A DNA stretch of 64,000 bases, taken from assembly GCA_009103225.1 (NCBI GenBank), contig RHPI01003516.1, positions 86,062-150,061 of the forward strand, given 5' to 3'. The DNA is from Chlorokybus atmophyticus. Taxonomy: Eukaryota; Plantae; Mesostigma and Chlorokybus algae. The position numbers and the translations under genes are program-made. Under the pieces are notes generated by a model that saw only the letters and a program-made list of their open reading frames with translations, was not told the DNA's origin and made no database searches. This document shows, piece by piece, positions 1,021-39,180 of this stretch (its first letter is position 1; every line of letters begins with the position of its first letter).

Positions 1021-1362
1021 ATGTGCGCAGCGGCAACGCAAAGCGGTGTGGTTCGTGTGCCCGACAAGGCGAGGCAGCTGTTTGGAGTCATGGCTCTGAT
1101 CCGGGAGGGCAATGGGCCTTGGATGGAGTGTAAGATGCTAGTGGATTGCGGCGCGAACAGCAACTTTATAAGTCGTGAGGTTGCGCGTCGGCACAAGTGG
1201 CTGTCATGGGCAAATGCTGGTTCGGTGGCTCTAGCGGACGGCTATGCACCAGTAGGAGGAGCTTCTAAGCAAAGCAAAGAGCTTGAGATGCACGTGGGGA
1301 TGATGAAGGATCGCCTACGCTTTTGCTGCATCGAGGTGAACAATGGCTTTGATGGCATTTTA
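1021..1362 (+). pseudogene. Ty3/gypsy aspartic protease fragment, truncated at about 1362
   Basis: 'MLVDCGANSNFIS' catalytic motif and '...FDGIL' end. The sequence then switches to a G-family terminus. Confidence 0.8.
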
Positions 1363-1463
1363 CTGGTCAGTGACGCGCGGGTCGCCATGCTGGTAAGCCG
1401 GGCGAGGGTCTCGCTGTAGGCATGCCCGATGACGACTGGCATGCCCAAGCGATAGGCATGACA
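1363..1463 (-). mobile_element. About 100-bp remnant of a G-family A terminus inserted into the integrase of another G copy
   Basis: The reverse complement begins TGTCATGCC at 1463 and aligns with the A starts at 2451, 15851, 27120 and 29200. Confidence 0.75.
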
Positions 1464-2168
1464 AGTATGAGAAGAACATCTGGGACGACCACCTTCCGTG
1501 GGTGGCTCCTGGATACCGATTGTCAGAGCAGGCGGATCTGCGCGAGTACAGCCCATACCTGCTGATTGGGCATCCGCCATTGCTTCCGTTTCGTGCATAG
1601 CAGGAAGTAGACCGTGTGGTAAACAACCTCGACGATCTTAACTGGATGCACCACAACATTACCACACGCGCCACGCTGTTCGAGCATACCGTCCCGATGG
1701 CCTTCAACAACTTGCGCATCGCACAGCACCGCGACACCCTGCACTACAAGCGCGTGCGGAGCGGCTTCTATAAGGAGCACCAACGGCGGTTTTAAGCAGG
1801 GGACTTTGCCTACCGCATGGCAGCCACCAAAAACACGCTCGACACCTCCGTGGGCCGCACCGTCTACAAGGTACTCAAGGTGTACCCCACAGGAGTGGAC
1901 CTCCTTGTCAGAGTGGCGAGAGGTGAACTGCGCGCCATGTCACCTTCCTTACATAGCGGGCTTTGCGCACATCTAGCACCCTCGCCCCGCCCGCAGCACA
2001 CGCTGTAAACGCTGCGGCAGTGCCGACGACAACGCACTCATGATGCTCTGCAATGGCTGCTACAAGGGCCTGCATTGCTACTGTCTGGAGCCCCCATTAG
2101 ACGCGATACCCATGAAGGGGTACTAGTGCAATGATTGCTGCACCCACGGTCCTCCTCACCTGGGTTAA
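1464..2168 (+). pseudogene. G-family integrase C-terminus plus PHD finger, decayed
   Basis: Colinear with the 3' end of ORF 17164..21402 (WDDHLPWV..., FEHTVPMAFNNLRIAQHRDTL..., CGSADD..LMMLC.GC..G.HCYCL). Contains stops and frameshifts. Confidence 0.9.
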
Positions 2169-2213
2169 TAGCTGAGCTATGGAGCTGGAACCTCCCTAGA
2201 AGCTCAGGGGGGG

Positions 2214-2448
2214 GGGGCTTGTTGACTGTGTGGCCTACAGCACAGCATGTACACTAAGGAGGACACCGCCTCCACATGTCCGTGTGATTCAGCGACAGCG
2301 GAACTCCACCAAGCACTCCTCGCCATACAAGCTGGGTTATCTTTTATTTTATCTACATATTATGACATGTTGCAGCGACAGGGCTAGCAAGTGTAGCGGC
2401 CCGAGACAGTGTGACCCTCGACTCTCCTCGACCCGGCAGCTGTCATGC
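2214..2448 (+). repeat. G-family B repeat, internal copy B1
   Basis: Follows a G-run PPT and starts with the 14-bp r motif (GGGGCTTGTTGACT). Direct repeat of 3031-3270; homologous to 16879-17118 (minus). Confidence 0.85.
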
Positions 2449-2450
2449 CT

Positions 2451-3044
2451 ACTGCCCACGCATACCAGCTTTCATAGAGCATGGCTACATCGAAACCATC
2501 GCCCGGCCTACCAGCATACCATCGCGCACGTCACTGACCAGTAGCTAGGTCATGACTCCAGAGTAGCTCACGACCATAGCCTACATAGGCACCGCGCGTA
2601 GCTGTTTAGTTGTGAGTTCGGTTATAAGGTGTGTTCTATATTGAGTGACAATCGCTGTGGAAATAGCCTCGATATAACCGTTAGCTTGTGTTCTGAAACA
2701 GTCATGATTTGACCTGTATCAATAGTCAAAGTGTTCACCGGATCAGCTGGTGACACTGTGAGTGCGAAAGCTAAGAGCTTGTGAAACGACTTAAACTGCG
2801 AACACGCCATCCCGGTTACCAAGAACCCCCTCACTGTGTGAGAGCCGGTGCAAGCTCGTGTGTGCATCGTGCTTGTTATCGTTGTGAGCTTGGTGTGCCT
2901 GGTTGCAGTGTGTTTGTTGGCATTAGTCAGGGCATAATATCCACGTGTTGCTTGCCCATTCACCTCACTTAACAGTGTAACACATTTTTCGCTCATGCAA
3001 AGAGCTGTGTAAACAGCACTACCTATAGTAGTGGCTTGTTGACT
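2451..3044 (+). repeat. G-family A repeat, internal copy A2
   Basis: Starts TGTCATGCC, is closely similar to 29200-29792, and ends in r (GTGGCTTGTTGACT, 3031-3044). Confidence 0.85.
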
Positions 3045-3270
3045 GTGTGTCCTACAGCACAGCATGTACACTAAGGAGGACACCGCCTCCACATGTCCGT
3101 GTGACTCAGCGATAGCGGAGCAGCTCCACCAAGTACTCCTCGCCATACGAGCTGGGTTATCTTTTACCGCTGCTACATGTTATAACATGTTGCAGCGACA
3201 GGGCTAACAAGCATGTCTCTTCCTGTAGCGGCCCGAGACAGTGTGACCCTCGACTCTCCTCGCCCCGACA
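3031..3270 (+). repeat. G-family B repeat, terminal copy B2
   Basis: Direct repeat of B1 ending ...CCCGACA. It is followed directly by copia integrase-region sequence on the opposite strand. Confidence 0.8.
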
Positions 3271-13824: not shown

Positions 13825-15851
13825 GGACGGTCCAGGATGCGGGCCCGTCGTGCGGCCGTCTTGATCTCAATCTCTGCAAGGGGTCAGGTTAACGATCACC
13901 AACTCAGGCTCCTCCTCCTCTGCCCTATCGATGGCTGCAGATATAGACAAGCTAGTGACTATAGCGGGAGCGGCATGTGGAAAGACGGCTGCTGGACTAT
14001 GCAGCGACGCAGATGCTATGGTGCTGGCGAGCTCGCCATAGCCATCAATTCGATGCAGATCAGCAACAAACTTGCAGACATCGTGTGCTTCATGGTCCAT
14101 ATACCAAGCAGCAATGTGGAAAGAACTTATCTGATCAGTCTTTGTTCTTCAAAGCTTGATGTCACATCTTAAAATAGAACTTGATGATGAATTCGTCCAA
14201 CGAGGTGGTGCCAGCACGTCTGGAGAATCGCAGGGATGTGGTTGAGCTGGAAGACTCCATCTCGTAGTCATCGCTATCGGACGATTGTGGGAAAGCTCGA
14301 TGGCGAGGAGTAGATTGGAACGGTGGAAGCCGGAGACAGAATGCGAGCCTCTTCTACTGCGATTGCTGCTCTTGTCGCTGGTCCGCTCGTAGATGAGATC
14401 GGAGGTTGGGCTCCAGCTGCTAAGGTCACCCTCTATTAAAGAGAATGGGGTGTGTCACAGCCCATTCAACCACAAAAGACTTAGTGCTTTTATCATCGAT
14501 TTATGGTAATTTAACGTACCTTCCCGTTACATCCCCCCCACTTAAGAACGCTGACGTCCTCGGCAGCTGGCTCGCATCAGCTGGGGAAGCATCCCAGGGG
14601 TCTGATCAGGGTTGGTCACCGGCCCCACTGCCCAAGAACCGGCCAATGTAGGCCCATACCGATCAACGCGCGCATAGTGCGCCGCTGCCGGCCCCACAGG
14701 TCTCGTCGCCGCGATAGGTAGGTCGAGCCCTGCCGCACCGACTGAACTGGTCAGTTCGGCGCGACTGCCATTAGGCAAGTCGCGACCCATCGATAATGGC
14801 ACTTATAAAGTGACCATTTACGATGTTATTAGATGGAGAAACAATGACCGCGGAATTCGTGTGCAAGGCAGGAATCAAACCCGGGTCTCAAGCTCCGATG
14901 ACCAATGTCACAGCCCACTCGACCATAAAAGACTTGGTGCTTTTATGGTCGATTTGTGATAATCTAATTTACCTTCCCGTTACAGGGTGGGCCTGTTCAT
15001 ACTGCTAGTCTACAGGTGAAAGTGTATGCAAGGTAGAGTGCTTGTGCTCTACCGTCTGTCGTGATGCTGCTACCACTGACCACACTAGTGCTTGTGTGCA
15101 CACTATGTGACGACAGTGGCAACGCAAGCACGGAGATGTATCCCCAGGTACAGACTGCACTACATGATTCAGAATGCGACGCACTCACGGAAGCAAAGAG
15201 GATGACACTATGAGTAAACAAGCCACTACAATAGGTAGAGCTGTTTACAAAGTTCTTTGCAAGAGTGGATGATGTACTACACTGTGAAGTGAGGTGAATG
15301 AACAAGCAACTCAGAGATGCTTTGTTCTAATTGATGCAGCAAACACACCATCACCAAGCTTTCAACAATAGCAAGCACAGCGCACAAGAGAATACATTGT
15401 GTCTCACGTGGTAAGGCACTCCTTGGCAACCAGAGGCAATCCTTCCAGTTCAAGTCGCTTCACAAGCTCTTAAAGCCGGAGTCTCTGCTCTTAAAGTTCA
15501 CTCACAGGGTCATCAGCAAGTCTGATGACATGACATCTTACTTATATATGTTAAGTCATGACTGTGCAGTGCCACGCGAGCACCAGGCCAACGGTCACAT
15601 CGAGACCGTATGCTACCACGAAAATGTCTTAAGACCACATATAGCATTTGAGCTAATAATTGATTCCTAACTAATCAGCTACGCTTCCTACAGAGAGGTC
15701 TATAGAGTAGCCCTAGCTACATGCTACATGGAATACGAAGTAGCTAGCAGTGGACTGGGGCGCGCGCAGTCTTTATACTGGTAGCCCGGGCTTGGGGCTG
15801 GATGTAGGCATGCTCGAGGAGGACTAGCATGCGAGGGTATTTGGCATGACA
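13825..15851 (-). mobile_element. G-family copy 2: A end, leader and 5' gag, truncated
   Basis: Starts TGTCATGCC at 15851, has r at 15213-15226, and gag homology to 25336-26256. Interrupted by a TRIM. Confidence 0.85.
14453..14984 (-). mobile_element. TRIM (532 bp) inserted at the G gag start
   Basis: 79-bp repeats at 14453-14531 and 14906-14984, TSD GGGTG on both sides, PPT AGTGGGGGGA (minus, next to 14532) and PBS-like TGGTCATCGGAGC. Confidence 0.92.
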
Positions 15852-17163
15852 ACTGGATGCTGGTGTGCTTAGGGAGCATTATTTCTTTGTGCAGTATCCA
15901 AGTATCCCTGTCTTCCATTGTTTCCTTTGTATCATGGCAAGATTAAAAGCAACTAAGGTGACGTCCACACATTGCTTCTTGCCACAGGGGGTGATATCTC
16001 AAGGAGGTGCCATCCCAATCTCGGTGTCTGCCGGTACTCACCGCGTCTTTTACAATCAAAGACTCTTTTAAATGGTAAAGAGCAATGTATGGAGAAAATC
16101 TAAACACTGGCACATTGTATTACCTACTCGCTAACGAAAGGTTGGCAATGATGAGTCTTAAAGTTGAAGAGTATTTGCAAGCTTTTGCGCATAAGTTGTT
16201 TGAAAAGCTGCCGCGTGTGTGGCAGCGCTAACACCTGCAACACAAAGCGATGCTTGTATACTCCGCATCATTTGCATGTAGGCTCTTGAGCTGCCGGTTT
16301 AGTAATATTTAGTTTCAAGTAAGCACGGTTGTGGTGCCTAGTTTACAGCCTTCATCTTGCAGACAATGTCGGTAACAGCGGTGGTGAAGGCGTCCGTCGC
16401 AACCGGTGAAATCTTGCTTCACACTTCTTATACGAATTTGTTAGCCACAATATTAATCACACCGCGTATAGCATCAGCACAAGCACCACCACGGGTTATG
16501 CTGATCACTTTAGTAGTTCATGGGTCGACAGCAGGAGCATGGGGACCGTCCACATGCATACACGCACAGTTTTGCATCACCAACAAAAGAATTTGGCAAC
16601 AGCACAAACCGCTTATCCATGCTATGCGTTGAGCCGCACCCACCTTCGCCGTGTAGCGCCTCAGTTGCTTGAGCTCAACGCACAACCATTACATGCGCTA
16701 GACCTATAGCGCAGAACTGCAACTGGCGTGAAAAGTGATGACAGGACTGCAAACAGCGTTGTACATAGACGGCATCACAGCAATTGTGCACATGCACCAA
16801 TTACTGGTTGCCAGTGAGTACCACCCCGATCATTACCCCAAGCCTGCGCATTATTTATTCATGCAAACACAAGCACCTTGTCGTGCCTGTCATGGTCGAG
16901 GGCAACCTTGTCTCGGACAGGCTGCAGAGGAGTGCTAGTGCTGCACGCATGCTAGTGCCGTGCACTGCATTGGAGTCATGCAAGCAAAAGACAACCCCCC
17001 AATCGTGGGCATAGGCTTGAAGATGAGCCTACGCGGTGTTTAGTGCAGTGGACGAGCCGATGTTGCTCGCCACCTTTGTGTACAGACTGTGTCGTAGTGC
17101 ACACAGTCAACAAGCCACCCCCCCTGAGATTCTGGGGTAGCCCTCTGCTCCAGAACTCAGTTC

Positions 17164-20100
17164 CTACCGACTGTGTGGGGGACCGTTGATGCGGCAGTCA
17201 TCGCACCAGTACTCCCACAAGGGTACTGCGTCCAGTGGAGGGTCAAGGCAGTAGCAGTGCATGCCTTGATTACAGCCGTCGCATAACATCATCAATGGGT
17301 CGTCGTCGGCGCTGCCACACTTCTCGCATCGGGTGCTGCGCAGCGGACGCGGGTGCTGGATCTTGGTGAAGCCAGCAATGTAGGGGAGATGACAGGGCGC
17401 ACAGTTGACCATGTTGTCCTTCATGCGCTCGCCTCGTTGTCCCAACAGGTCCAGTACCCCTGTGGGGTGCACCTTCAATACCTTGTAAACAGCACGCCCG
17501 ACGGAGGTATCGAGGGTGTCGCGTGTAGACGCCATACGGTAGACGAAGTCTCCTGACTCGAAGCGGCGCTCCCGCTCCTTGTAGAAACCACTGCGCACAC
17601 GCTCGTAACGCAGCGTGTCGCGGTGCTGCGCGATGCGCAGGTTGTTGAAGGCCATGGGGACTGTGTGTTCGAACAGCGCACTGCGCACTGTCAGATCATA
17701 CAACATCTCGTCGGGGTTGTCGAGATTGTCCACCACTCTGTCGACCTCCTGCTGTGCGCGGAAAGGGAGCAATGGCTGCCTTCCGAACAGTAGATAGTAT
17801 GGGCTATACTCTCGCAGGGCTGCCTGCTTGGACAGCCGGTAGCCCATTGCTACCCATGGGAGGTGATCATCCCAGGTATTCTTCTCGTAGGCGAGGACGT
17901 ACTTGCGCAGTGCCTTCTTGATGGTCTGCACGGTACGCTCGGCGAGGCCGTCGGCCTGCGGGTGGTCGCGTGAGGTGCGACGGTGGTCGATGAAGCATCT
18001 GTCGATAAGCTTGTCGAAGGCTCCTCTGAACTCCGTACCCTGGTCGGTGATGACTTCAGCGCAGCTGCCGAAGCGTCCGAGTACATGGGAGAGGAAAGCC
18101 TGGGCTACTCCCTCACTGCTCTTGTCGGGCAGGGGCACCAGCTCCACCCACTTGGAGAAGTGCTCGATCATGACGAGGATGTAGCGGTTGCCTCGCGCTG
18201 AGGGCGCTAGGTCTCCGAGGATGTCCAGTCCCCAGCGGTAGAACAACCCGGAAATGGGAAGGGGATGCAAGGTGGCATTGCGCGTGTTGAGGCTGGCGCG
18301 AACCATGTCACACTGCTGACAGTTGCTGACGAACTCCCGCACCTGTCTGTGCACCCCATACCACCAGTACTGGGTCCTGACCAGGCTGACCGTGCGCTTG
18401 ACACCGAAGTGCCCGAGCTCGGTGTGAAGGGAGGAGATGATGCCTTCACGTGCAGCTGGTGTGGGGACCTCCTGATCTGCATCTTGTATCCGTCGATACA
18501 GCCTGTCGTTGGCCCAGCGGTAACGCTGAGTGCGTTGCCGGACGCGGTCCTTCTCGCGTGCGCTCATGCCTGCTGGAAGTTGTCCAGTCTGAAGCAGTGC
18601 GAGCGATGGCTCGTCCAGCCAGATGTCTTGTCGTGTGTCGGTGGGTGCCAGCTCCTCATCATCCACCTCAGGGTCGGCAGCGATTGCTTCTTCTGATAAA
18701 GGATCGGTGGTGGTGATGGCGGGCTCGAGAGCGGGCATGTCCCCGTCTGCTGCTGCCTCAGCGATCTGAGTCCTGCGTCCTGAGCGTAGCGCAGCGACAG
18801 CGAACATGGTGGCCACACCTGAAGGTGCAGCTGTAGGACCCAACTCATGTCGGGCGCCTGTGGCGTCGTTGGTGCTGAGGTGGGGGTTACGGCTGAGGCC
18901 ATCCGCATCCTGGTTGGCAAGGCCTGCGCGGTGTTCCACCTCGAAGTCGTACTCCTGGAGCAGCAGCGCCCATCGTGCTAACTTTCCTGTCAAGTGCTGG
19001 TTGTTCATTAGCCACTTGAGGGGTTGATGGTCAGTGACCAGTTGGAACTGCCGTCCAAACAGGAAGGGTCGGAAGAAGGAGATGGCCCACACTGCGGCGA
19101 GACACTCCCCTTCGTAACTGCTGTAGTTGGCCTCAGCACTGTTGTTGCTGCGGCTGGCGTACGACACTACGCGCTCCTTCTTGTTGTTGTCGTGCTGTAC
19201 GAGCACGGCCCCCATGCCGAGCTTGCTCCAGTCTGTGTGCAGGATGAACGACCTGGTGTAGTCAGGGCGTTGCAGAATGGGAGCTGTGGTGAGGCGGAGC
19301 TTCAGCTCCTGAAAGGCCTCCTGTTGTGCCTCCTTCCACAAGAACTCGGTGTCCTTCTTCAGTAGTTCGTTGAGAGGCCTTGCGATCTTGGCAAAGTCCT
19401 TGACAAACCGGCGGTAATAGTTGGCAAGGCCGAGGAAGGCCCGCAGCCGCGTGAGGTCTGTGGGGGCAGGGATAGCCACCAGTGCCTCCACTTTGGCCTG
19501 CTGTACGTACACACCATGGGGCACAATCATGTGTCCTAGGTAGGGTACCTTGTGGGTGAAGAAGGTGCACTTGTCAGGGTGCACCGTCATCCCGACTTCC
19601 TTCAGCCTCTGTAGCACCTCTTCGATGTGCTGGAGATGCTCCTCATTGCTGTGACTGAAGATGAGGATGTCGTCGATGTAGCAGCGCGCGAAGTCCAACC
19701 CCTTGAGGGCTTTGTCCATGACGCGCTGGAACTTGGCCGGAGCGTTCTTCAGTCCGAAGGGCATGACCTTCCACTGGTACAGCTGCCGGTTTCCCCAGAA
19801 GGAAGTCTTGTGCTTGTCCTCCTCCTTGATGGCGATCTGGTTGTACCCTTGGCGCATATCCAGGATACTAAAGACCGTGCAGTCTCCTACATCGTCAAAG
19901 ATGCCTTCTGCGGTAGGCATTGGATACCTGTCCTGCTTGGTCTTGTTGTTGAGGGGGCGATAGTCGCCACACATGCGCCGGTCTGTCCAGTTGCCTGCTG
20001 AATCTTTCTTCAGGGGCATGACGGTCGCGGCCGCAAAGTCCGATGTGGACTCCTCGATCAGGCCTGCATCTAGCAGCGCCTTGCACCTCTGTTCCACCAA

Positions 20101-21402
20101 GTCTTCTTCTAGCTTGGAGAGGCGGTACTGTCTTCTGAACACCGGTTCGGTGTCCACTAGTTCAATGTCCATCTGGTATGCTGAGCAGATGCCCAGCTCC
20201 TTCACACTGAAGCTGAATTGGCTCCTCCACTTGTTGAGGAGAGCCTCGAGTTGCTCTCGAGTCTGGCCTGTGGCCAGCGGTCCAATGGCGTGGGACCACG
20301 AGGTAGCGTTGGCGACCACTGGAATGTCTTCCACAGTGACTGCTGCCTGCTCCTCCATGTGGGCGGTCTCGAGGGCGGTGTGTGCTGCTTTGGTCTCTGA
20401 AAAGCGAGCAATCCACCCCCCAGCCAGGTGTTCGAGCTCCTGGAAGGACACATGGCGGTCCTGGAGAGCAAAGCACATTTCCAAGTACCACACCATGCTG
20501 TTCTGATCCATGGCGCGCCCCAACAACTGACATTGTTGACTGGTTGTCAGCGTGGAGCCTGTGATGCTGCTTGGAAAGAATCCCATAGCACGCTCGCGCT
20601 CGCGGGCATTGGGTTCTTCCAGCTGTCCAGTGTTGGAGTCCAACACCATGCCGTCGCCTGCATTGCGGAACGCGTAGGAGCCTGGATAGGATACAAGTGT
20701 GGGTAGCGCGCGGCGCGGCTGACCAGGCTGGTTGCACTGGTAGAAGTGGTGGTGGTCAAGGCGTGTGACTGGTTGCGCTGTGCGTCCAGGGTCCAGGATG
20801 TCATCGACGACGAGATTTCGTGGCCGATTGCTGTATAGGTACTCTGCCAGAAACAGGTCTTCCACAATGGCCAGGTTGGTCCACTTGGCGCGGACGCGGT
20901 GTGCACGAGATCCATGACGCGCGGCGTTGATTTTGAGAGGATGCCCCAGCAAGGAGCATACTTGCCGATAGGCCTTGGCGACGTGGTGCCGCTTGTCATC
21001 CTCGGAGTGCACATTCTCGATGATGTACCCCAAGGGTTTAGCGATCTGACTGATCTGTAGGAGTTTGATGACTCTCATTAGCTCCCAGAACAGCTGTGAG
21101 CGAGGATCCGAGAGCCCTTGGCCTCTGCCTGCCCTGGAGTGCCCTTGACACTCCCACCCTGCTATCAGCAGGTCAATGTTGCCGACTGCCTGCAGGTGAT
21201 CCTTGGTAATCCAGCGGATGTCCTGCGGTAGAGCCTTCTGGCTCCCTTGCAGTGCCGACAGCGGTAGCTGCTGCGGGTAGCGCTGGTGCAGCTGTCGTAA
21301 ATGATGGCTCAGAGCTTCCTGTGCATGAGGCATGAGGGTCAGGGTCACAGTAGAGGTACTTGGTGACTGTTGTTCCTGTGTTGAGGACAGCCGCAAGCCC
21401 AC
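17164..21402 (-). CDS. pol: G pol: C5 cytosine methyltransferase, RT, RNase H, integrase and PHD finger
   Basis: 1412-aa open frame with MTase motifs (GWECQ, ENV, RVRAKWTN, ERERAMGF), RT 'YIDDILIFS', RNase H 'LHTDWS...YEGECLA', IN HHCC plus D,D35E, and a C4HC3 PHD. Confidence 0.95.
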   Translation of the reverse strand: MGLRLSSTQEQQSPSTSTVTLTLMPHAQEALSHHLRQLHQRYPQQLPLSALQGSQKALPQDIRWITKDHLQAVGNIDLLIAGWECQGHSRAGRGQGLSDPRSQLFWELMRVIKLLQISQIAKPLGYIIENVHSEDDKRHHVAKAYRQVCSLLGHPLKINAARHGSRAHRVRAKWTNLAIVEDLFLAEYLYSNRPRNLVVDDILDPGRTAQPVTRLDHHHFYQCNQPGQPRRALPTLVSYPGSYAFRNAGDGMVLDSNTGQLEEPNARERERAMGFFPSSITGSTLTTSQQCQLLGRAMDQNSMVWYLEMCFALQDRHVSFQELEHLAGGWIARFSETKAAHTALETAHMEEQAAVTVEDIPVVANATSWSHAIGPLATGQTREQLEALLNKWRSQFSFSVKELGICSAYQMDIELVDTEPVFRRQYRLSKLEEDLVEQRCKALLDAGLIEESTSDFAAATVMPLKKDSAGNWTDRRMCGDYRPLNNKTKQDRYPMPTAEGIFDDVGDCTVFSILDMRQGYNQIAIKEEDKHKTSFWGNRQLYQWKVMPFGLKNAPAKFQRVMDKALKGLDFARCYIDDILIFSHSNEEHLQHIEEVLQRLKEVGMTVHPDKCTFFTHKVPYLGHMIVPHGVYVQQAKVEALVAIPAPTDLTRLRAFLGLANYYRRFVKDFAKIARPLNELLKKDTEFLWKEAQQEAFQELKLRLTTAPILQRPDYTRSFILHTDWSKLGMGAVLVQHDNNKKERVVSYASRSNNSAEANYSSYEGECLAAVWAISFFRPFLFGRQFQLVTDHQPLKWLMNNQHLTGKLARWALLLQEYDFEVEHRAGLANQDADGLSRNPHLSTNDATGARHELGPTAAPSGVATMFAVAALRSGRRTQIAEAAADGDMPALEPAITTTDPLSEEAIAADPEVDDEELAPTDTRQDIWLDEPSLALLQTGQLPAGMSAREKDRVRQRTQRYRWANDRLYRRIQDADQEVPTPAAREGIISSLHTELGHFGVKRTVSLVRTQYWWYGVHRQVREFVSNCQQCDMVRASLNTRNATLHPLPISGLFYRWGLDILGDLAPSARGNRYILVMIEHFSKWVELVPLPDKSSEGVAQAFLSHVLGRFGSCAEVITDQGTEFRGAFDKLIDRCFIDHRRTSRDHPQADGLAERTVQTIKKALRKYVLAYEKNTWDDHLPWVAMGYRLSKQAALREYSPYYLLFGRQPLLPFRAQQEVDRVVDNLDNPDEMLYDLTVRSALFEHTVPMAFNNLRIAQHRDTLRYERVRSGFYKERERRFESGDFVYRMASTRDTLDTSVGRAVYKVLKVHPTGVLDLLGQRGERMKDNMVNCAPCHLPYIAGFTKIQHPRPLRSTRCEKCGSADDDPLMMLCDGCNQGMHCYCLDPPLDAVPLWEYWCDDCRINGPPHSR

Positions 21403-24400
21403 TGCCTATGCCTCCGAACAGCTCCAGCACGGTGATGCCTTGTCGTCGGCGGAACATGTGGAACTCCACAACTCCCGTAGCTATGTGGTACTGATCCTGT
21501 ACTGTAGCCTGGTCTTTGTAGGCAGGGAAGTGTGCAGTGAGCTGAGGCCTGGTCAGCAGCATGTGTGCTGCTACTTGTGCGCTCCAGCGACGCTCGGATG
21601 GCTCCTGAAAGGCCACTTCTTTGGTGACAGTCTCCTGAGACTCATCGTACGGTGTAGGGGAGTCCTCTTCAGCGTTTAGGCTCGGGCTCGAGCTCGTTGC
21701 AGTTGTCCTTGGCTGCGTTCGGGCACGAGGCACACGTGAGCTTTTTGTAAGACTGTAGGTGGCTGCTGCAGCCGATCTTCGTTGCGAGCGGTCCTTGGCC
21801 ACCAGTTCGAGAGGTAGGAATCCCTGCTCCTCTCCATCGTCCTCATCCCAATGTGGTCGAAACCATGCCTGCTCAGTCCAGCAGTCCAGCCCCATGCCGA
21901 CAGGGAAGTTGCAGTCCTGTCCCAACAGTAGGTCAAAGGACCCGGCATCGGTGACCACACACCTTTGTACAATCTCGGTGCTGTGGGAAGGGTTTAGTCC
22001 GGTGAGGCGGATGCTCACAGCCTGCTTGGTAAGGCCGAGTACCTTGTCACGGTTGCCGGTTGCGGTGTCCAGCTGATAGGGACAGGGAAGCAGCTCAGCG
22101 CTGGTGATGCCGAGATCTCGTGCGAGGTAGCGCCCAATGATGACAGGCTGTGCTCCAGTGTCCAGCATCACGCATTTGGGTGCCCGCCCATTGACGGTCA
22201 CGTGCTTGCCTTGGTTGGCAATCATGGCTGCATTGGCGTTGATGCGCAGCCTCTTGAAGCGACGGAACCTCTTGCGTGGAGAGACTGTTGCTTTATTCTC
22301 ATCTGCGGGGCCTGACCGTAGGGCAGCCAGGGCTCCTCTGCCTGATGGATCTTGTGGGCCTCCTTGTCCTCGGCTTTGTCCAAACCGTCCTTGTCGCGGT
22401 TGCTGGTACACGCGTGGTGGCCTAGGCACTGGAGGTGCTGCTGCCACCTGTCCAAGTGGAGGTGCAGGAGGGTTGACCCTCTGTACAGCTGTTGTCATGC
22501 CAGGAGGAGTGGCCAGTGGCTGTGGCGGGAACCCTGGAGGACCTGGTGTTTGCGGGACTGCCTCTCGTGCAGCCTGCTCCTCTGCATAGGTCCATCGCAC
22601 AGCATGGGCTGCCTCTCTGACTAGTGTACCTTCCCATGTCGCCGTCGCATTGTTGTCCGCATCTATATAGCGATGGTTCTGAGGCATGGGCTGCAGGTAC
22701 ACTGCGCGTAGGAGCCGCGCTCTCATGTCGTGGGTGATGATGGGCACCCTGAGGATTACTGCCATGTAAGCATCCCATCTGCCGTTGACCACTCCCACTT
22801 CCAGCACTGTTATTGCTCGTGTGCGTACAGTGAGCTGGGTCTCTGGCTGTTGAACATGCTGCTCGTAAGCAGTGGCGATGCGCCTGCGCTGACGTCCTGC
22901 CTCCACCCCTGGCAAACTCAGTATCGCCTCCAGAGCTCCCTCCAGAGTGTCAGTGGCGGCGGAAGCCACTTCATCATAGGCTTGCCGTATGGAGCGAAGG
23001 AATGCGTCCACCCACGCTATTCTGGCGCCGAAAGCGAACAACGGGACTGCGGGATGGTTGGTAACCAGCCACGTCACTAACCGTGCGCGTGCCGCGTTGC
23101 CACTGTCTCGCATCCCAAGCATCTGCCGCAGTCCGATGCCTTCTTGCCGATGCAGCATGGTTGCTTGTCGCAACAGAGCAGTGCGTAGTTGTTGCTCTCC
23201 AACCAGTCCTGCTCCATCTCTTTGTGTACACCCTTGTGGTGTAAGGTAGCCCCTCCCTGGCTCCCTTTGGTCCTCAGGTAGATCCTCCACCAGCGCAGGC
23301 AGCAACGGGGCGATCACCCCCCTGGTTTGTTGAGCCAACGCCCTCGCTTGGTCAGAGTTGGTCCCGACGAAGAGCGGAGTGGTGCTGGAGGATGGACCAG
23401 CAGTTGGTGACTGAGGTATTGGTGCACGTGTAGCTTCAAGAGCTTGTTCACGTGCAGCAATGGCGGCAGCTTGATCCTGTCGCCAATGATATGCTTGTTC
23501 CAGTGCGTGGTAGCGCTGATGAAGACGAGCGGTTGTAGGAGGTCCGAGTGCTTCATCAGTGCCCAAAGGCAGGTCGGCTGCGTCGGCGATTCGCTGCTGG
23601 ATGGCGTCTCGGCGGTCCCGATACGTGTCCAACGGGCTGGGTTCAAAGGTGGTGGTTGGCATGCGTGCAGGCTGGCGCGGGGCGGTCTGCATGTTGTTGT
23701 GCAACGCCCAGAACAGCTGCAGAGCCAACTCCAACACTACAGGTGGGCTGTAGCTGATCAAGAACACCCTGTCACGCATCGGGGGTGCAGTGCCAGCAAG
23801 GATCTCATCTTCTAACTGGTGTTGAGTGAGTGCTGGAAGGGTGTGAACCTCTGGCAGCGGGAAGACGCGATCATCGCGGGCGACACGCGTGGTGCGCTCC
23901 CCCCCCCGACCGAAGGCGATGGTAGTGGGGTCTGCTCCGCGCAGGATGGTTTCCCATGCTCGTTCAGCTTGCTGACCAGTTGGGACAGCCTGAGTGACGT
24001 CGAGAGCGGGCAGAGTGGCTGCGCGCGTCGCTGCAGAGACAGCGGGCTCGACGATGGCCATTGTGGCAGTTGCGACGGTATCGGTCAGTGGTGCGAGAGT
24101 TGTCTCAACGCCCCCGGACAGAGGCGCTGCTGCAGTGGGAAGTGCACCGCCCACTGGTGCAGATTCGGTAGTGATGGCGGCTGCTGCCAGTGTGCTCACC
24201 AGCGTTGGCGTCACGGTGCCCACCGGTGTACCAGGTCGTGGTGCAACTGGAGTGGGTAATGCTGACGTTGATGGAGTCGATGTTGTAGCCGGTGTGGCTG
24301 TTGCTGCGGAGGCAGCACCACTGGTGGCTTCGGAGGAGGTGCCTGCTAATGTTGTTGCAGCTTCCCCTCGTGCTCGTCGTGATGGTTGCACGCGGGACGG

Positions 24401-24520
24401 AGTGTTCCTGTCTCTCTCGCGTTTTGCAGCCATCAGCGCCCATCGGGCCGTGTAGCAGGCGCGGTAGTCCTGCTCCTTGTCTTCCTCCAAGCGTGCCATG
24501 CGTGCCATTAGGGCTGCCAT
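21173..24520 (-). CDS. G polyprotein middle part: Ala/Thr/Pro-rich region, unknown domain, aspartic protease and MTase motif I
   Basis: 1115-aa ORF with 'VMLDTGAQPVIIG' and 'VLELFGGIGSG'. It joins the pol frame if the tandem CATGAGG duplication (21324-21337) is collapsed. Confidence 0.9.
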   Translation of the reverse strand: MAALMARMARLEEDKEQDYRACYTARWALMAAKRERDRNTPSRVQPSRRARGEAATTLAGTSSEATSGAASAATATPATTSTPSTSALPTPVAPRPGTPVGTVTPTLVSTLAAAAITTESAPVGGALPTAAAPLSGGVETTLAPLTDTVATATMAIVEPAVSAATRAATLPALDVTQAVPTGQQAERAWETILRGADPTTIAFGRGGERTTRVARDDRVFPLPEVHTLPALTQHQLEDEILAGTAPPMRDRVFLISYSPPVVLELALQLFWALHNNMQTAPRQPARMPTTTFEPSPLDTYRDRRDAIQQRIADAADLPLGTDEALGPPTTARLHQRYHALEQAYHWRQDQAAAIAAREQALEATRAPIPQSPTAGPSSSTTPLFVGTNSDQARALAQQTRGVIAPLLPALVEDLPEDQREPGRGYLTPQGCTQRDGAGLVGEQQLRTALLRQATMLHRQEGIGLRQMLGMRDSGNAARARLVTWLVTNHPAVPLFAFGARIAWVDAFLRSIRQAYDEVASAATDTLEGALEAILSLPGVEAGRQRRRIATAYEQHVQQPETQLTVRTRAITVLEVGVVNGRWDAYMAVILRVPIITHDMRARLLRAVYLQPMPQNHRYIDADNNATATWEGTLVREAAHAVRWTYAEEQAAREAVPQTPGPPGFPPQPLATPPGMTTAVQRVNPPAPPLGQVAAAPPVPRPPRVYQQPRQGRFGQSRGQGGPQDPSGRGALAALRSGPADENKATVSPRKRFRRFKRLRINANAAMIANQGKHVTVNGRAPKCVMLDTGAQPVIIGRYLARDLGITSAELLPCPYQLDTATGNRDKVLGLTKQAVSIRLTGLNPSHSTEIVQRCVVTDAGSFDLLLGQDCNFPVGMGLDCWTEQAWFRPHWDEDDGEEQGFLPLELVAKDRSQRRSAAAATYSLTKSSRVPRARTQPRTTATSSSPSLNAEEDSPTPYDESQETVTKEVAFQEPSERRWSAQVAAHMLLTRPQLTAHFPAYKDQATVQDQYHIATGVVEFHMFRRRQGITVLELFGGIGSGLAAVLNTGTTVTKYLYCDPDPHASCTGSSEPSFTTAAPALPAAATAVGTAREPEGSTAGHPLDYQGSPAGSRQH

Positions 24521-24697
24521 ATGGTCATCAGCTGGTGGGTTGGCTGAAGCCTTGGCGGCAACAGCAGCAGCGCGCGGACGTGTCTCTGGTCCCTTACGCT
24601 GAGGAGGTCTGTTCTTCCCCCTGTAGCCTTGCTCTTCCTTGCGAGCACTGGCATTGTTGTTGTTGTTACTGCCACCAGCGTTGTTGCTGTTGTGGGC

Positions 24698-26256
24698 TCA
24701 AGTGTTGTTGCTATTGTAGCCACTGAAGTGGTTGCCAGTGTGGCCCCCAGTGTTGTTGCTGTTGTAGCCACTGAAGTTGTTGGCAGGGTGGTTGTAGCTG
24801 TTGGCGGGCCTCAACTCTGGGAACTTGAGCCAGCAGACTGACTCCAGATGACCAATCTTGTGACAGTGGTCGCAAACCAAAGTTGAGTATTCTTCGGTGC
24901 ACTCCTTTTGGTAGTGCCCATGCCGTCCACAGCGATGACACAGCACAGGGGCAGCAAGTGCAGCATGAGCTGACCGTTTCCCTTTGTCGCGTGCTGGTGG
25001 AGCGTCCCGGCCACGGTCGCGGCGAGGAGGCTCAGTTGTCGTGCTGACTACAGGCCGTACGGCTCTGCGGTTGGTGTCCAGCACTGCCTTCTCATACACC
25101 AAGCGCTTGTGGATGGCTTGTGCAGTCTCGAAGGCTTCTTTGAGAGTGTAGCCAAGGGGCCTGCTGTAGTTCAGAGTCAGGCGTGTCGACTCGCTCAGAG
25201 CAGCATCCAACTCATTGACGTATATTACTACAGCAGCCTCCTCACTGACAATCTTGTAGTCAGTGTCTTTCAGCAGACCTTCCAGTCTGGAGTATAAGCG
25301 GAGGGGATCCTCATTGGGCTTGCGTCGGAAGCGTCTCAACTCCTCAACCTTGCTGGTGGTCTGAGGAGGGAAGGTACGAGGAGGTAAGGTACGAGGAGGT
25401 AAGGTAGGCGCAGGGCAGCGTACAGGTCCTTGAGTGGAGAATCAGAGATGGCAGCACCTACGGTGATGGCTGGTGCGCGCAGTGCTACTGACCCGAGGGT
25501 GAAAGCGCTGCCTCCTGCACGAGAGCCAGGTGTTGCTGGAGGTAGAGGAGTACCCCACTCTGCGGCTGCCGCTTGCTGTACAGCTCTTTGTTCCTCAATG
25601 ATGATGGCAGAACGGTCAAGGATGCGGACTCGACGTGTGGCCTCCTTGGACTCAACTTCTGCAGGGGTCAAGTTGACAAGTACCAACTCTGGTTCCTCCT
25701 CCTCTGCCTGCTTGAGAGCGGCAGCTATGGTCAAGCCTGTTACTGCAACTGAAGTGGCAGGTGGAATGACACCTGCTGGACGGTGCAGGGATGCAGATGC
25801 TATGGTGCTGGCAAGCTCGCCATAGCCGTCTACTCGATGCAGTTCAGCAACGGACTTCCAGACATCGTGTGCTTCATGATCAAGATACTGAGCAGCAATG
25901 TGGAAAGAGATCTCATCTGACCAGTCTTTGTTCTTCAGTGCTTGCTGCCGCATCTTGGAGTGCCGCAACTTGATGATGAACTCATCCAGCGAGGTGGTGC
26001 CGGCACGTCCGGAAAAGCGCAGGGATGTGGTTGAACTGGAAGATTCCATCTCGTTGTCGTCGCTGTCCGATGATAGTGGAGAAGCTGGAGGACGAGGAGT
26101 AGAGTGGAGCGGGGTGAAGCTGGAGATGGAGCGCGAGCCTCTGCTGCTGCGGTCGATGCTTCCGTCACTGGTCCGCTCGTAAGTGAGATTGGTGGTTGGG
26201 CTCCAACTGCTGAGGTCACCCTCGTCTATTGGGGAGAACGGGGTGGGCCTGCTCAT
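24698..26256 (-). pseudogene. gag: G gag with two CCHC zinc knuckles
   Basis: ORFs 25336-26256 and 24698-25339 are split by a 15-bp tandem expansion at 25371-25400. Knuckles are CHRCGRHGHYQKEC and CDHCHKIGHLESVC. One in-frame TGA (24698-24700) separates this from the next ORF. Confidence 0.88.
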
Positions 26257-28235
26257 ACAGCTGGTCCAGAGGTGAAAGGGTAGAGTGCTTGTGCTCTACC
26301 GTCTATCCTGATGCTGTTACCACCCAACACACTAGTGCTTGTGCGCACTGTGTGATGACAATGATAACGAATGCCCAGCGATGTATTCCTGGGTGCAGAC
26401 TGAACTATCTGATGCAGATTGCAACACACTCACTTGTGCAAAGAGGGTGACACTGTAAGTCAACAAGCCACTACGATAGGTAGTGCTGTGGACACAGTTC
26501 TTTGCATGAGTGGATAGAATGATACACTGTTAAGTGAGGTGAATGAGTGTGCAACACGTGGATACAACACCCTGACTACTGAAACAACACACCACCGTCA
26601 AGCTCACAGCAATGGCAGGCACAGCGCACAAGAGTATGCACCGTGTCTCACGCAGTAAGGGAATTCTTGGCAACCGGGGCAGCGTGCTTCCAGTTCAAGT
26701 CGCTTCACAAGCTCTTTAGAAACAGAGTCTTTACTTCTTGGTACTCCTAGTACTCACAGTACTCACTTACAGTGTCACCAGCCAGTCTGGTGACGTGACT
26801 TCCTACTTATACATGTCAAATCATGACTGTGCAGTGCCACACGGGCACTAGGCCAACGGTCACATCGAGGCCTCATGCTATTTCGGAAATCTCCTAAGAC
26901 TTGATATAGCACATGTGTTCTTAACAGACTTGCAACTGATCAGCTACGCGCGGTCCCTACAGACAGGTCTATAAAGTAGCCCTAGCTACAGGCTACATGA
27001 GTGATACAGTAGCTAGCAGTAGGCTGGGGCTCGCGCGGTCTTTATGCTGGTAGCCCTGGCGTGGGGCTGGGTGTAGGCATGCTTGAGAAGAACTGGCATG
27101 CGAGGGTAGATGGCATGACAACCTTCCTGTGTGCACACAAGTACAGCCTTGCCATATGCATCAAGTAGTCAAAGAAGCCGAGTAGGCAGACAAATCGACA
27201 ATGCAGTCGACGAGAGCACGCTCACCCAACCATTGCAAGACGCCATGACATGACAAATGCTAACCACTCCCTGCTGCAACCCAAGCTGCAATATGGAGTG
27301 GATTCCCTTTCGCATCCATGTCTTTCCCAACCACAACAGTGACAACAACTAACAATTGATTTTGCAAGGCAAGGTAGGTGCAAGTGCACATATGTCAAGT
27401 ATTAGTTGTTGAACTGTGTGCGCTGGGGTGGGGGAGGTGGGGGGTATGTGCTTGCGCACGAGGCATGCATTAGCCATATGTTCACATGATTTATTGCCTT
27501 TTTTGCGACAGCTGCCGCACATGCCGTGTCGCTACACACACATTTTGTGATTGCGACTATTGTTGTTATTGTCGACATACATCTTCTGCTCTGCGGCACA
27601 AGCTGGAAACAAAGAAGCGCTCTCATGGGCTTATTGCCGCAGCCGGGTTGGCAACTGCTATGCATACCGTAGTAAGTGGCAATCAGCGGGCCAGAACAGG
27701 TGGCCACAATCAAATCAGCTGCGCCAGGATGCCAAACAACCGGGCTGCAGGTGTTCGCACACCGGCGGACTTTCATACCATTGCGTGCATTGTTTTGCTG
27801 CTATACACATGTTACATACATATGTTGTCATTCTTTGTGTTTTCGTTCAAGACATGCAGTGCTCAGATCTGCTAAACAGAGCAATCAGTTTGACTTCATC
27901 AATCGCAGTAAGCTCAGTCGGACTGCACAATCTACACCAAATGTATTGCCTTCATATATGTGCATGTATGCACGGCTTACCAAACAGCATGGCATGCTGT
28001 GGCATCAACTGTGCCCAAACTTTTGGCATGTCTTTCCAGAACTCAACGTTGCATCAATTCTTTTTGGTGCACATTGCTTTGTTGACCAAGGTACTGTGCA
28101 CCATAACGTGCACACACTACCTGATTGGCAGTGTGCTGATTGAGCACGTGTGCCAACATCATGCACACCAGATGTAAGCCCATCTCAGGCCTGCGCCCCT
28201 ATTCTTTCCTGGAGCACCTCATGTTACTTCAACCA

Positions 28236-29199: not shown

Positions 29200-31576
29200 T
29201 GTCATGCTTAGTGCCCACACATACCAGCCTTCATCGAGCATGTCTACATCAAAACCATTGCCCGGCCTACCAACATACCAACGCGCGCGCGTCCCTGACT
29301 ACTAGCTAGGTCATGACTCCAGAGTAGCTCACGACCATAGCCTACATAGGCACCGCGCGTAGCTATTCAGTTGTAAGTTCTGTTCTATATCAAGTGACAA
29401 TTGCTGTGGAAATAGCCTTGATATGACCGTTAGCTTATGTTCTGAACGGTCATGATTTGACTTGTTTAAGTAGTCATTGTGTTCACCGGGTCGGCTGGTG
29501 ACACTGTGAGTGAGAAAGCTAAGAGCTTGTGAAACGACTTGAGCTGCAAACACGCCATCCCGGATACCAAGAACCCCCTCACTGTGTGAGAGCCCGTGCA
29601 TGCTCGTGCGTGCATCGTGCTTTTCATCGCTGTGACCTTGGTGTGCCGGGTTGCAGTGTGTTTGTTGGCATCAGTCAGGGCATAGTACCCACGTGTTGCT
29701 TGCTCATTCACCTCAATTAACAGTATAACACATTTTTTGCTCATGCAGAGAACTGTGTAAACAGCACTACCTATAGTAGTGGCTTGTTGACTCACAGTGT
29801 CACCCTCTTTGCTATGGTGGGTGCGTTGCATTCTGCATCAGATAAGTGCAGTCTGTATCTGAGGACACGTCCCCGTGCATTCGTTATCACTATCATTACA
29901 TAGTGCGCACATAAGCACTAGTGTGGTGAGTAGTAGCGGCATTGAGACAGGCGGTAGAGCACAAACGCTCTACCCTGCATACACTTTCACCTTTGGACTA
30001 GCTGTATGAGCAGGCCCACCCCGTTCTCTTCAATGGACGAGGGTGACCTCAGCAGCTGGAGCCCAACCTCCAACCTCACCTACGAGCGGACCAGCGACAG
30101 GAGCAATGATCGTAGCAGCGGAGGCTTACGTGCTGTCTCCGACTTCATTCCGTTCCTGTCCACTTCACGGCATCGAGCTTCCCCACTCTCGTCCGACAGT
30201 GACGACTACGAGATGTAGTCTTTTAGCTCAACCACGTCCCTGCGTTTCTCCAACCGTGCTTGCACTACCTCGCTGGATGAATTCATCATCAAGTTGTACT
30301 CCAAGATGCGACAGCAGGCTCTGAAGAACAAAGACTGGTCAGATGGGATCTCTTTTCACATTGCCGCTCAGTATCTGTGTGACGGTGCTCGTGCCTTGTC
30401 ACCTGTGAGTTGGTCCAATCCACAACCCTCTCACCAAGACACGGTATTCACACCGGAACCTTGCCCCCTCTGCCAAGCACACACGCGCGCCCCGCCACTC
30501 GCGTACGCACGCGCATGCGCTCGAAGCTACACACCGACTTGTGTAGCGCCCTGGATCGTCACACAAGCAAGCACACACCAGTGGACACACGCTAGCAACC
30601 CCTTCTAGCCACCACCAAGCTTGCACACAAGAAACTAGGGAGCTAAAGGTTGTATTGCAAATTGTAGATTGTCACTTTTATACCTACCAGTCTGCACATG
30701 CTACTGTAGACGATTCTAGCGCTAGACGGAACAAGAAGCTAAGGTAGTTGCAGAATCTTGTATTACACTTCTAGAGCTTTCCAACGCACCAAAGATCTCA
30801 CAATTTGCTGCTCATATCAGTTATACTACTTGGCGCCAGGCCCTTCCAGAAATCTGGTCGAGCCCTTCTCGACTGGCCCTCCGTTTTTGGCACCTTCCGG
30901 ACTGGTCTTGGGGCCCCGGTCGATATCCGCGGCAAATCTCATAACTCGCCGATATCCGCCACAAGTCATAAAAAAACATGTATCTTACAAATAAGGCCTA
31001 AAACGGCCATGAAAATCATAAAATTTGGCCTTGACTGTTACAATCTGGATCATGAAGCACATGATGTTTGAAAGTCTGTTGCTGAACTGCATCGAGTAGA
31101 TGGCTATGGCGAGCTCGCCAATACCATAGCATCTGCGTCACTGTACAGACCAGCAGCGTCTTTCCACCTACCACTTCCGTTGCAGTCACCGGGTTATCCA
31201 TAGCGGCAGCTATTGACAGAGCAGAGGAGGAGGAACCTGAGTTAGCGATCGTCGACCTGACCCCTGCAAAGATTGAGATCAAGACGGCCGCGCGACGGGC
31301 CCAGATTCTGGACCGAATCTGTTGCCATCCTTGAAGAACTGCAGCCGTTGATGTGGGCACACCCCTACCTATGGCAACACCTAGCTCTCGTGCGGGAGCC
31401 AGTGCTTTCACCCTCGGGTCAGTGGCACTGCGCGCACCAGCCATCACTGTAGGTGCTGCCATTTCTGACTCTCCACTCAAGGATCTATACGCTGCACTTC
31501 GTCGCACCTTCCCACCGCAGACCACTAGCAAAGTGGAGGAGTTGAGGCGGTTCCGGCGCAAGCCCAACGAGGACCC
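29200..31576 (+). mobile_element. G-family copy 3: A end, leader and gag 5' half, cut by copia A'
   Basis: Starts TGTCATGCT, has r at 29779-29792, and gag 'MSRPTPFS' at 30006. Confidence 0.88.
30378..31042. mobile_element. Solo LTR (665 bp) inserted in G gag
   Basis: TGTGAC...GTTACA ends with TSD ATCTG at 30373-30377 and 31043-31047. The gag sequence resumes seamlessly after it. Confidence 0.88.
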
Positions 31577-36723
<5,147 letters not shown>

Positions 36724-37996
36724 CACACGGCTTGACGTTGAAGGACCATGCATGGTCCTTTCACGGACCCCGCGGACCATGCATGATCCGTACTCCACGG
36801 GCCAGGACTGCCTGGTCCGCGGGGGACGGACCGTTCCTGGTCCATTCGGGGCCCCGCGGCCCGTGAATGGCTGGCGCGGCGTCGCGCACCACGCATGGTC
36901 CGTGCCGCACCATCCATGGTGCGGCACGGACCAGTAACGTACGCTGGCCCTTGAACGCGGACCAGGTGCGGTCCCGCAGTCCTGTGGCCCTACTAGCACG
37001 CACCGTACATGGTACCGCACTGTCCGCGTCGCAACATGTACGTTCTGGCACGGACCAGTGACCGCGGCCCTGCCGCTATGTATCATGTATCATGAGTAGG
37101 TAGCAACCTATGCAAGGTACAATAGATTGCCTAACTGCCTGATTGCACAAGTGCACTTTATGTGTTGATTGACAAGCCGCACCGACTGTCGGCTATACAC
37201 CCGTGGACAGCCGCAAGTGCATAGCCGCAAATGGTCGGCGGCTGATTGACAGCCGGCCGGCTGTCAATCAAGCTGTAACGGGCTGTCTATGCAATCAACA
37301 TACTTCATAGTACCGTACGTGTATTTGCAAAAATTTGTGGACATGCACTATTAACATGTTCTATGCGTTTATCTAAGTATCTACGTATATATGAACATTA
37401 TACATGTGCATTGACGTATGCACATGTATAATGTTCATATACGTAGATACTTACATTATTATATATATTATAAAATACCTGTATATAAATGTTAGCGTGT
37501 GCACAAATGAATCTAATCGTATATGCATAGATACGCAGGTTAAGATGATTATATCAGTAGTATTTAGGTTGAGCCGTATACAAGGTATGTCTCATATAAA
37601 AATACGTACAAGAAGTATACATAAATAACGTTACTTATTATAATAGCCTCTTATGAGACCGCAGAATGGTTGACAGCCCCGACCAAGCATTGTGTCCAAC
37701 CAACCAGTAAATACCTACGTTGGTGCCGCAATGCGGTTTTAATATTTATATCATGTAAACGTATATATGTAAGTATACATGATATAAATACTTTATACAC
37801 AAATGCTTACATACATACACATGTAGGTGTGTGTATGCGCACGCAAGCAGGATGTTGACAACCCCTAACAAGGTTACATACTCATGGACAGCCCCCAACA
37901 AAGCATTGTAGTTTATAAATCTTGGCAGCCCCCGAGTTGCGGCTGTCTGTGTCATCAATAATGACCTAAAATAACATAATACCGTTGATTATGCTG
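36724..37996. mobile_element. CACAC-terminated EnSpm/CACTA-like element, long R arm
   Basis: Starts CACACGGCTTGACGTTGAAGGACC, is rich in GGACC/GGTCC subterminal repeats, and is colinear with 57074-58270. Confidence 0.8.
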
Positions 37997-38188: not shown

Positions 38189-39180
38189 CGATAGTGATAG
38201 TAATAGGGATAGTGCTCGACATAGTGACAGTAATAGTGACTGTTGTAGTGATAGTGGTAATGATAGTGATAGTTGTAGTGATAGCGATAGTGATAGTGGT
38301 AATGGTAGTGGTAGAAGTGGCCATTGTAATCGGGATAGGGCTTAAGATAGGGACGCTTATAGTAATAGTTATAGTGATAGTGGTACCGATAGTGATAGTC
38401 ATAGTAGTTGCTGTTGTCGTAATGGCAGTGATTGTAATAGGGCTTAAGATAGGGATATCAATAGTGATAGTTGTAGTGATAGTGGTGATGATAGTGATAG
38501 GGTTAGTGTTACATGGTAGTGGTGTTGTAGGGATAGTGGTAATGGTAGTGGTAGAAGTGGCCATTGTAATCGGGATAGGGGTTAAGATAGGGACACTTAT
38601 AGTGATAGTTATAGTGATAGTGGTACTGATAGTGATAGTCATAGTGGTAGCTGTTGTCGTAATGGCAGTGATTGTTTTAGGGCTTAAGATAGGGATATCA
38701 ATAGTGATAGTTGTAGTGATAGTGTTAGTGATACATGGTAGTGGTGCTTTTAGTGATGGGAATAGTGACAGTTGAAGGGACATCAATAGTAATAGTTGTA
38801 GTGATAGGGATAGTGGTAGCGATAGTGATAGCTGTAGTGATGATGGTAATTGTAGTGGTAGTATATGACAATTGAAATCGGGACCGATAGTGTAATGTAG
38901 TGGTGACAATTGTAATAGGGATAGGGTTTATGTTAGGCACATCAATATATAGTGATAGTTGTAGTGATAGCGATAATGATAGTGATAGTAATAGGGATAA
39001 TGTTGAACCTGTAGCATTGCATAGCATTGCATAGGGACATCAATAGTGATAGTTGTAGTGATAGTGGTAATGATGATAGTGGTAATGGTAGTGATAGCAA
39101 TAGTGATACAATTGTAATAGGGATAGGGCTTATGATAGGCACATCAATAGTGATAGTTGTAGTGATAGTGATAGTGATAT
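38189..39180 (+). repeat. (GATAGT)n-type minisatellite with a 240-bp higher-order duplication
   Basis: Trinucleotide/hexamer-based low complexity. The block starting near 38293 recurs exactly 240 bp later. Confidence 0.9.

Follow-up and report, generated by a model that had tools for sequence, protein, structure and literature searches.

The window analyzed here, a stretch of 64,000 nucleotides from Chlorokybus atmophyticus, carries a Ty3/gypsy element (hereafter G) on its minus strand, with its parts in the order repeat A, gag-like region, protease, C5 methyltransferase, reverse transcriptase (RT), RNase H, DDE integrase, PHD finger, polypurine tract (PPT), and repeat B. Repeat A1 (26458..27120, 663 bp) starts with TGTCATG, and its last 14 nt are identical to the start of PPT/B. 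It is followed by a gag-like region in two frames (24698..26256), the second of which has a CCHC zinc knuckle, and by a frame with an aspartic protease and the start of a cytosine methyltransferase (21173..24697). A further frame (17164..21405) encodes the remaining DNMT, RT, RNase H, an H2C2 and rve integrase with its D..D..E residues present, and the PHD finger. The DNMT, which is thus split over two frames (PF00145, E 3.8e-10), is placed within Pol ahead of RT, and the other domains keep the Gypsy order PR-RT-RH-IN. Several of the frames are interrupted. The G-run of the PPT, AGGGGGGG, lies at 17118..17125 and repeat B at 16879..17118, with the end ...CACGACA; in other copies of the family, this end is joined via GC to the start of A. 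Target-site duplications of AGGT flank the element (left copy, 27121..27124; right copy, 16875..16878; all features of G are on the minus strand), and G is thus an A-internal-B copy. Pfam profiles gave no match to a chromodomain or to SH3_Tf2 in G at E<=0.01, the PHD finger being found instead. Similarly, no tyrosine recombinase was detected in four frames of G or in 11 proteins of its relatives; the rve integrase was present. In a side comparison of the integrase core of P0001, the spacing from the second D to E was one residue shorter in all four matched clade members than in the two matched outgroups, a difference that is possibly tied to junction cleavage.

Three other copies of related repeats occur in the window: copy 1 (1466..3270, plus strand), copy 2 (15201..15851, minus strand), and copy 3 (29200..29804, plus strand). 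Copies 2 and 3 each consist of a repeat A followed by gag remnants, a single fragment in copy 2 and several in copy 3, and repeat A is 76-83% identical between the families of G, copy 2, and copy 3. Copy 1 contains an integrase/PHD end, a PPT (2207-2217), B1 (to 2438), the dinucleotide GC, A2 (2441-3044), and B2 (to 3270), which gives its 3' end the order PPT-B-A-B. Its left end is missing, and its B2 is followed by GC-TCGCATG (3263-3279), which resembles another B|A junction. Sequence comparison also identified a fragment of another repeat-A start (1361..1463, minus strand). The possibility that the A of copy 2 is the 3' LTR of G was rejected on the basis of its 77% identity and of its own binding site and gag downstream. 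Inside copy 2 lies a TRIM-like element (14453-14984) with 79-bp TG...CA direct repeats and a 5-bp duplication, GGGTG; on the minus strand it has a TGG-type primer site and a G-rich tract, as an ordinary tRNA-primed neighbor.

The surroundings are rich in other mobile sequences. Three copia elements were found (5133-10098, 31575-36727, and 47085-51989), with GGTTAT(G/A)GGCCC after the LTR in the two that were checked, a motif that we take to resemble the half-tRNA-Met site of Osser-type elements. One copia element is interrupted by about 552 consecutive T (34229-34780), which extend a short A-run of an intact-looking sister copy (near 7444-7451); this stretch is either a poly(A) insertion or an assembly artefact. 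Helitron Rep/Pif1 frames (39873-43538) are accompanied by arrays of GATAGT-type hexamers in inverted orientation (38190-39179 and 44945-45673). The region 55170-62706 contains a 3.8-kb inverted repeat (95%) together with a third copy of its 670-bp arm, and 59196-62032 shows 72% identity to the protease-bearing frame of G.

A preliminary description of this DNA had reported a perfect 15-bp inverted repeat in G, and direct comparison of both arms bears this out: GGTGACACTGTAAGT (26446-26460) and ACTTACAGTGTCACC (26765-26779) are exact reverse complements. With the shuffled regions picked after the repeats had been seen, 15 bp was reached in none of 300 dinucleotide shuffles of repeat A plus 78 nt (longest perfect inverted repeat: mean 9.2, maximum 13), and a 12-nt complement anchored 0-5 nt past repeat A was reached in 3 of 5000; for two copia LTRs of the window, the anchored test gave scores of 6 and 5. 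The right boundary of A in G (26458, ...TTGACT) was set from copy 1 and from one G-family contig in which B is joined to A at this position. Since ...TTGACT also terminates the 3' copies of A, the part of the downstream arm beyond the repeat measures only 12 nt and begins with zero spacer. The earlier description needs correcting on this point, as the three other pairs fall inside the repeat. For the same reason, A was not accepted as an ordinary LTR with TTACA (26454) as its end. The accessible text of PMC6317226 defines self-priming by at least 10 nt of complementarity to the repeat at a site 0-5 nt past the 5' repeat; G has 12 nt at 0 nt.

These positions give a predicted 12-nt self-primer, GGTGACACTGTA (26768..26779), with RNA +1 at 26779, and a 12-nt primer-binding site, TACAGTGTCACC (26446..26457), which begins 0 nt after repeat A; positions 26765-26767 provide three more pairs. 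A TATA box sits about 30 nt ahead of a polymerase II start. In G, the TATA-like box TATAAGT (26805..26811) is 32 nt ahead of the primer arm, and the predicted start is of the pyrimidine-purine type. The same 32-nt distance separates the arm from TATAAGT in copy 2 and from TTTAAGT in copy 3. A hairpin spanning the predicted start (GTCACCAG/CTGGTGAC, 26774..26794), to which a role can only be ascribed conditionally, could form solely in the 3' copy of A in the RNA. In G, copy 2, and copy 3, the first 8 nt past A contain no TGG-type site, and the 64-kb window has no tRNA gene. Self-priming with a start near 26779, as previously suggested, is supported at the sequence level by the zero spacer, by the TATA-like box at -32, and by the same geometry built from unrelated sequences in relatives.

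The copies in the window also covary. The compensatory change described earlier for copy 3 was confirmed: its arms (29497-29511 / 29790-29804; binding site, 29793-29804) form 15 perfect pairs out of 15, with A:T replaced by G:C at pair 12. Copy 2, for which double changes had been claimed, does replace G:C by A:T at pair 2 and shares the change at pair 12, but its arms (15514-15500 / 15215-15201; binding site, 15212-15201) also include one mismatch and one G:U pair among 13 Watson-Crick pairs. In all, the three window copies show two compensatory pairs. Copy 1 has the primer arm and no binding site.

In silico folding gave a mixed picture. The primer duplex is the minimum-energy fold in copies 2 and 3 and in most relatives, and shorter leader RNAs of G favor it as well. 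When the G leader is folded past 26430, another structure is better by 6-12 kcal/mol and the pairing probability of the primer duplex is 0.00. In the folding model, this counts as a real miss against self-priming, though G is a decayed copy.

More distant relatives were sought in metagenomes, and 79 loci were retained from the best 80 of 356 confirmed stretches; 41 were compared with themselves, and a search for inverted repeats of at least 12 bp covered 32, many AT-rich chance repeats in the flanks being set aside. Pairs of 12-16 bp, of unrelated sequence, occur at the corresponding place in these relatives, and a TATA-like box is frequently present near -30. In six of the eight families tested by shuffling, no more than 1 of 300 shuffles yielded a pair as long as the observed one (14-16 bp); the pair of L062 is weak, being reached by 4 of 300, and that of L059 was reached by 113 of 300, which is chance level. 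The 14-bp pair of L061 and the 16-bp pair of L051 stand outside this test. Within its own set, the arm matched the site at 12 of 12 positions in 10 of 11 sets, and foreign sites matched at a mean of 3.9 of 12 positions (maximum 8; 102 comparisons). The L010/L043/L054 family gives a match of 10 out of 11 nt, and this solely when its copies are combined. In an AT-rich family, the arm, AGTTTTTCTAGA, is preceded by TATAAAAG at a distance of 32 nt in 20 of the 21 A copies that were matched (one of them entering the count twice), and the binding site, the complement of the arm, directly follows A1 without a spacer. TATA-like boxes are also present in L063 and L070 (TATTTAA, -31), L061 (TATATG, -29), and L005 (TATAATG, -26), and none was seen near -30 in L007, L009, L062, or L051. 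The zero-spacer position applies to the families of G and copy 3, to the AT-rich family, and, less cleanly, to L010; it leaves out L005, L007, L009, L061, L062, L063, and L070, in which the boundary of A is not fixed. Among viral contigs, there was no match to P0001, and an alignment query gave two loci, both outside the clade of G. As a separate observation, some relatives have a long extra coding region past the PHD finger (L051:10290-11405, L069:10630-11836, and L071:10550-11580); the two that were scanned, L051 and L071, had no Pfam match there, and by eye the region may be a methyltransferase-like module.

The repeats of these elements are not ordinary LTRs. Two complete TG...CA LTRs are absent from the family of G, whose layout is A-internal-B(-A-B). 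In contigs of two runs, the end of B is joined to the start of A via GC, at rough depths of 59.6x and 91.8x, close to those of internal contigs (37-54 and 52-81), with A contigs deeper. Since both the B|A and the A|B joints are found in contigs, the family can be described as A-internal-B-A-B. The AT-rich family, among the listed loci and with duplicates removed, comprises six complete A-internal-B-A-B elements and four other B-A-B 3' ends, as well as three A-internal-B elements with both ends and seven other single-B 3' ends, some of which are possibly B-A-B ends collapsed in short-read assembly. The elements begin with TGTC... and end with ...GACA, and 4-bp target duplications flank 7 of the 10 elements with both ends, G included; L008 and L033 have no matching duplication. 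In the families of G and of the AT-rich elements, the two ends are also found side by side within the element, as GACA-NN-TGTC, intact or decayed. Junctions of this type are also found in L003, L005, L007, L009, L051, L054, L059, L061, L062, L063, L065, L070, and L071 (of which L003, L065, and L071 end soon after the junction and were outside the inverted-repeat test), and none is found in L069 and L079. The right end of A and the left end of B are without CA/TG ends.

Comparison of repeats within and between elements bears on how they are renewed. A1 and A2 differ by 0.111 within elements vs 0.18 between elements, and B1 and B2 by 0.076 vs 0.12, as for LTRs renewed every cycle; B1 and B2 form no separate slot lineages. 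With transversions only, the pairing of B1 with B2 is weak (nearest neighbor in 2 of 10). The A2|B2 junction varies in length among 10 copies (five flush, three -2, one -1, and one +1), the three -2 copies falling on different branches, two of which have bootstrap values of 96 and 98, and the B1|A2 junction has one length in all 10; at least three length classes are also seen in 59 of 707 alignment windows. The -2 form removes one AT from ATATA and could result from slippage mimicking end-joining. In L017, L034, and L035, a 15-nt tandem unit beside the att end distinguishes B1 from B2 of the same element.

Taken together, these data lead us to propose, with a probability of about 0.7, that the inverted repeat is the self-primer and primer-binding site of a DNMT/PHD Ty3/gypsy element with split repeats, which integrates after its integrase cuts an internal palindrome. 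The RNA would very probably begin at 26779, 32 nt after TATAAGT. With comparable confidence, its first 12 nt would pair with the 12 nt right after A, and RNase H would free the primer, by analogy with Tf1. Strand transfers of the LTR type and priming at the PPT would then produce linear DNA of the form B-A-internal-B-A, neither tip of which is an integrase site. These two tips would likely be joined into an A|B junction, either in a circle or by repair after insertion. Somewhat less firmly, we suggest that the DDE integrase would cut both strands of the palindrome GACA^NN TGTC at B|A, leaving CA-3'OH ends with 2-nt overhangs, exactly those of processed retroviral DNA, and would insert A-internal-B-A-B with a 4-bp duplication. 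Both processed ends from one cut B|A junction would share a single dinucleotide. Copies like G, of the form A-internal-B, would arise from a circle with one repeat or through subsequent recombination between B1 and B2. The order A-internal-B-A-B is a circular permutation of the B-A-internal-B-A DNA, which fits the joining of tips and a cut at B|A. The route is also consistent with the data because A1/A2 and B1/B2 pair within elements, A2|B2 varies while B1|A2 is constant, and no tyrosine recombinase is found.

Two observations fit this route poorly. One is the -2 class of A2|B2, given its possible origin by AT slippage. The other is that a symmetric circle with two repeats should yield A-B-A-internal-B and A-internal-B-A-B equally often, and an upstream B was present at 0 of 15 inspected 5' ends, vs 12 B-A-B 3' ends; this absence is unexplained. 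Our guess is that the left B|A site is favored as the one nearer the DNA tip, B being short. The missing class demands an asymmetry, and so speaks for a variant in which self-priming is right and no free circle exists: either RT jumps from the tip of A to the tip of B, or the left B|A site is cut in linear DNA and the host seals the break. The left site is indeed closer to the tip, B being shorter than A both in G (about 240 vs 663 bp) and in the AT-rich family (about 180 vs about 290 bp), and the 14-nt overlap at A|B in the family of G would favor an RT jump. However, in other families the overlap is only 0-2 nt and one junction has an untemplated base, and neither of these routes alone forbids use of the right site; we consider this variant unlikely, though worth keeping in mind.

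Two further explanations dispense with self-priming. The repeat might merely close a 5' leader structure, with a tRNA fragment or another cellular RNA as primer, and half-tRNA priming does exist in plant copia lineages, according to the accessible text of PMC6317226. A tRNA-bound site would be conserved, however, whereas the site in these elements differs completely between families yet always fits its own arm, and this arm begins at the predicted +1; a cellular primer is accordingly quite improbable. Lower still is the chance of replication like that of DIRS/PAT elements, with priming at the RNA 3' end, A2|B2 inherited from the RNA, and the repeat acting as an ICR-like helper. The repeat order is the same as in PAT/Ngaro elements, and the DIRS primer is described as not known, with a 3' hairpin proposed (PMC7192593, accessible text). 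Against this stand the PPT right before B1, the DDE integrase, the 4-bp duplications, and the lack of a tyrosine recombinase; in addition, B1 and B2 lack separate lineages, and A stops exactly at the start of the paired site.

A broader proposal can be made, to which we give slightly less than even odds: that a green-lineage Ty3/gypsy clade follows an obligatory circle-junction cycle, in which self-priming, the joining of non-att tips, and the integrase cut of a templated palindrome with a shared dinucleotide succeed one another. If true, this would be an LTR retrotransposon operating like an IS3 circle. Calypogeia, Closterium, Klebsormidium, Tetrabaena, and Marchantia are the sources of the closest named proteins to those of G. 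In a tree built from 52 RT-RNase H sequences, with L054 dropped as too short, the clade of G has a support of 1.000 and includes the K. nitens DNMT-RT-IN protein P0047; it excludes the chromodomain- and SH3_Tf2-bearing sequences of that tree, which was built without Tf1 or Tcn1. From its host and domains, we infer that P0047 is KnitGypsy-Dnmt3. Self-priming would be extended to a clade that lacks the chromodomain and has relatives in the five genera named above, and may have arisen there apart from Tf1.

Self-priming and the split-repeat order have each already been published, for different elements. In the literature searched (without subscription journals, Repbase, or supplements), no paper links the two or describes an internal att palindrome, and the name "KnitGypsy" is confined to a single paper; the supplements of PMC5890265 and PMC6317226, outside that literature, may bear on priming in the clade. 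The words "primer" and "split direct" are absent from the accessible part of a 2026 preprint on methyltransferase-bearing retrotransposons. LTR-finder-based catalogues, such as that in the accessible text of PMC6317226, would miss elements like G because paired TG...CA LTRs are absent. For Gypsy elements with DIRS-like repeats, which were depicted in 2018 with no mechanism attached, the present proposal offers a replication route that can be tested. More generally, if the integrase cuts the palindrome, joined-end DNA would be the normal integration precursor here, an idea that has been debated for retroviruses.

The best-matching known element is KnitGypsy-Dnmt3 of Klebsormidium nitens, a Gypsy element with a DNMT in its Pol frame (de Mendoza et al., 2018, PMC5890265) and with repeats that, according to the legend of Figure 4c, are ordered as in DIRS elements. 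In the accessible text of that paper, it resembles G in the Pol-frame DNMT and the A-coding-B-A-B repeats, in addition to the shared RT clade, and no primer, att site, or replication route is given. G and most of its relatives end in a PHD finger, whereas "PHD" is absent from the main text of that paper. In our view, G belongs with KnitGypsy-Dnmt3-like elements; it is Tf1-like in priming, and membership of the Tf1 group is not claimed.

The earlier comparison with Tf1/sushi elements holds for the priming mechanism. In Tf1, the first 11 bases pair with the primer-binding site and the RNase H cut falls between bases 11 and 12 (PMC7175516; PMC4600332; accessible texts), compared with 12 nt in G; in Tf1/Tf2, Tj1, and the Tf1/sushi group including plant Tcn1, as in G, the primer site directly follows the 5' repeat and complements the RNA 5' end, which in G is predicted (PMC6317226, accessible text). 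The comparison does not extend to the rest of the element: G has a PHD finger in place of the chromodomain typical of the plant and fish members of the group, lacks SH3_Tf2, has split A/B repeats rather than two LTRs, falls apart from chromodomain-bearing sequences, and has a primer site that does not follow a CA integrase end. PAT-like and Ngaro elements share with the family of G the order A1-coding-B1-A2-B2, along with the recurrence of the joined ends within the element; the enzyme they use is a tyrosine recombinase (PMC7192593, accessible text), whereas the clade of G has a DDE integrase, a PPT, and 4-bp duplications. Finally, the integrases of foamy virus and HIV are reported to cleave the palindromes of 2-LTR circles, and IS3-family transposases to insert circles (PMC1180852; PMC3219604; accessible texts). 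As in the model for G, a DDE enzyme cuts a palindromic end-to-end junction to give processed ends. In those systems the junction is built from the DNA tips, whereas in the clade of G it would be a fixed, templated site in each repeat unit, the tips themselves not being att sites.
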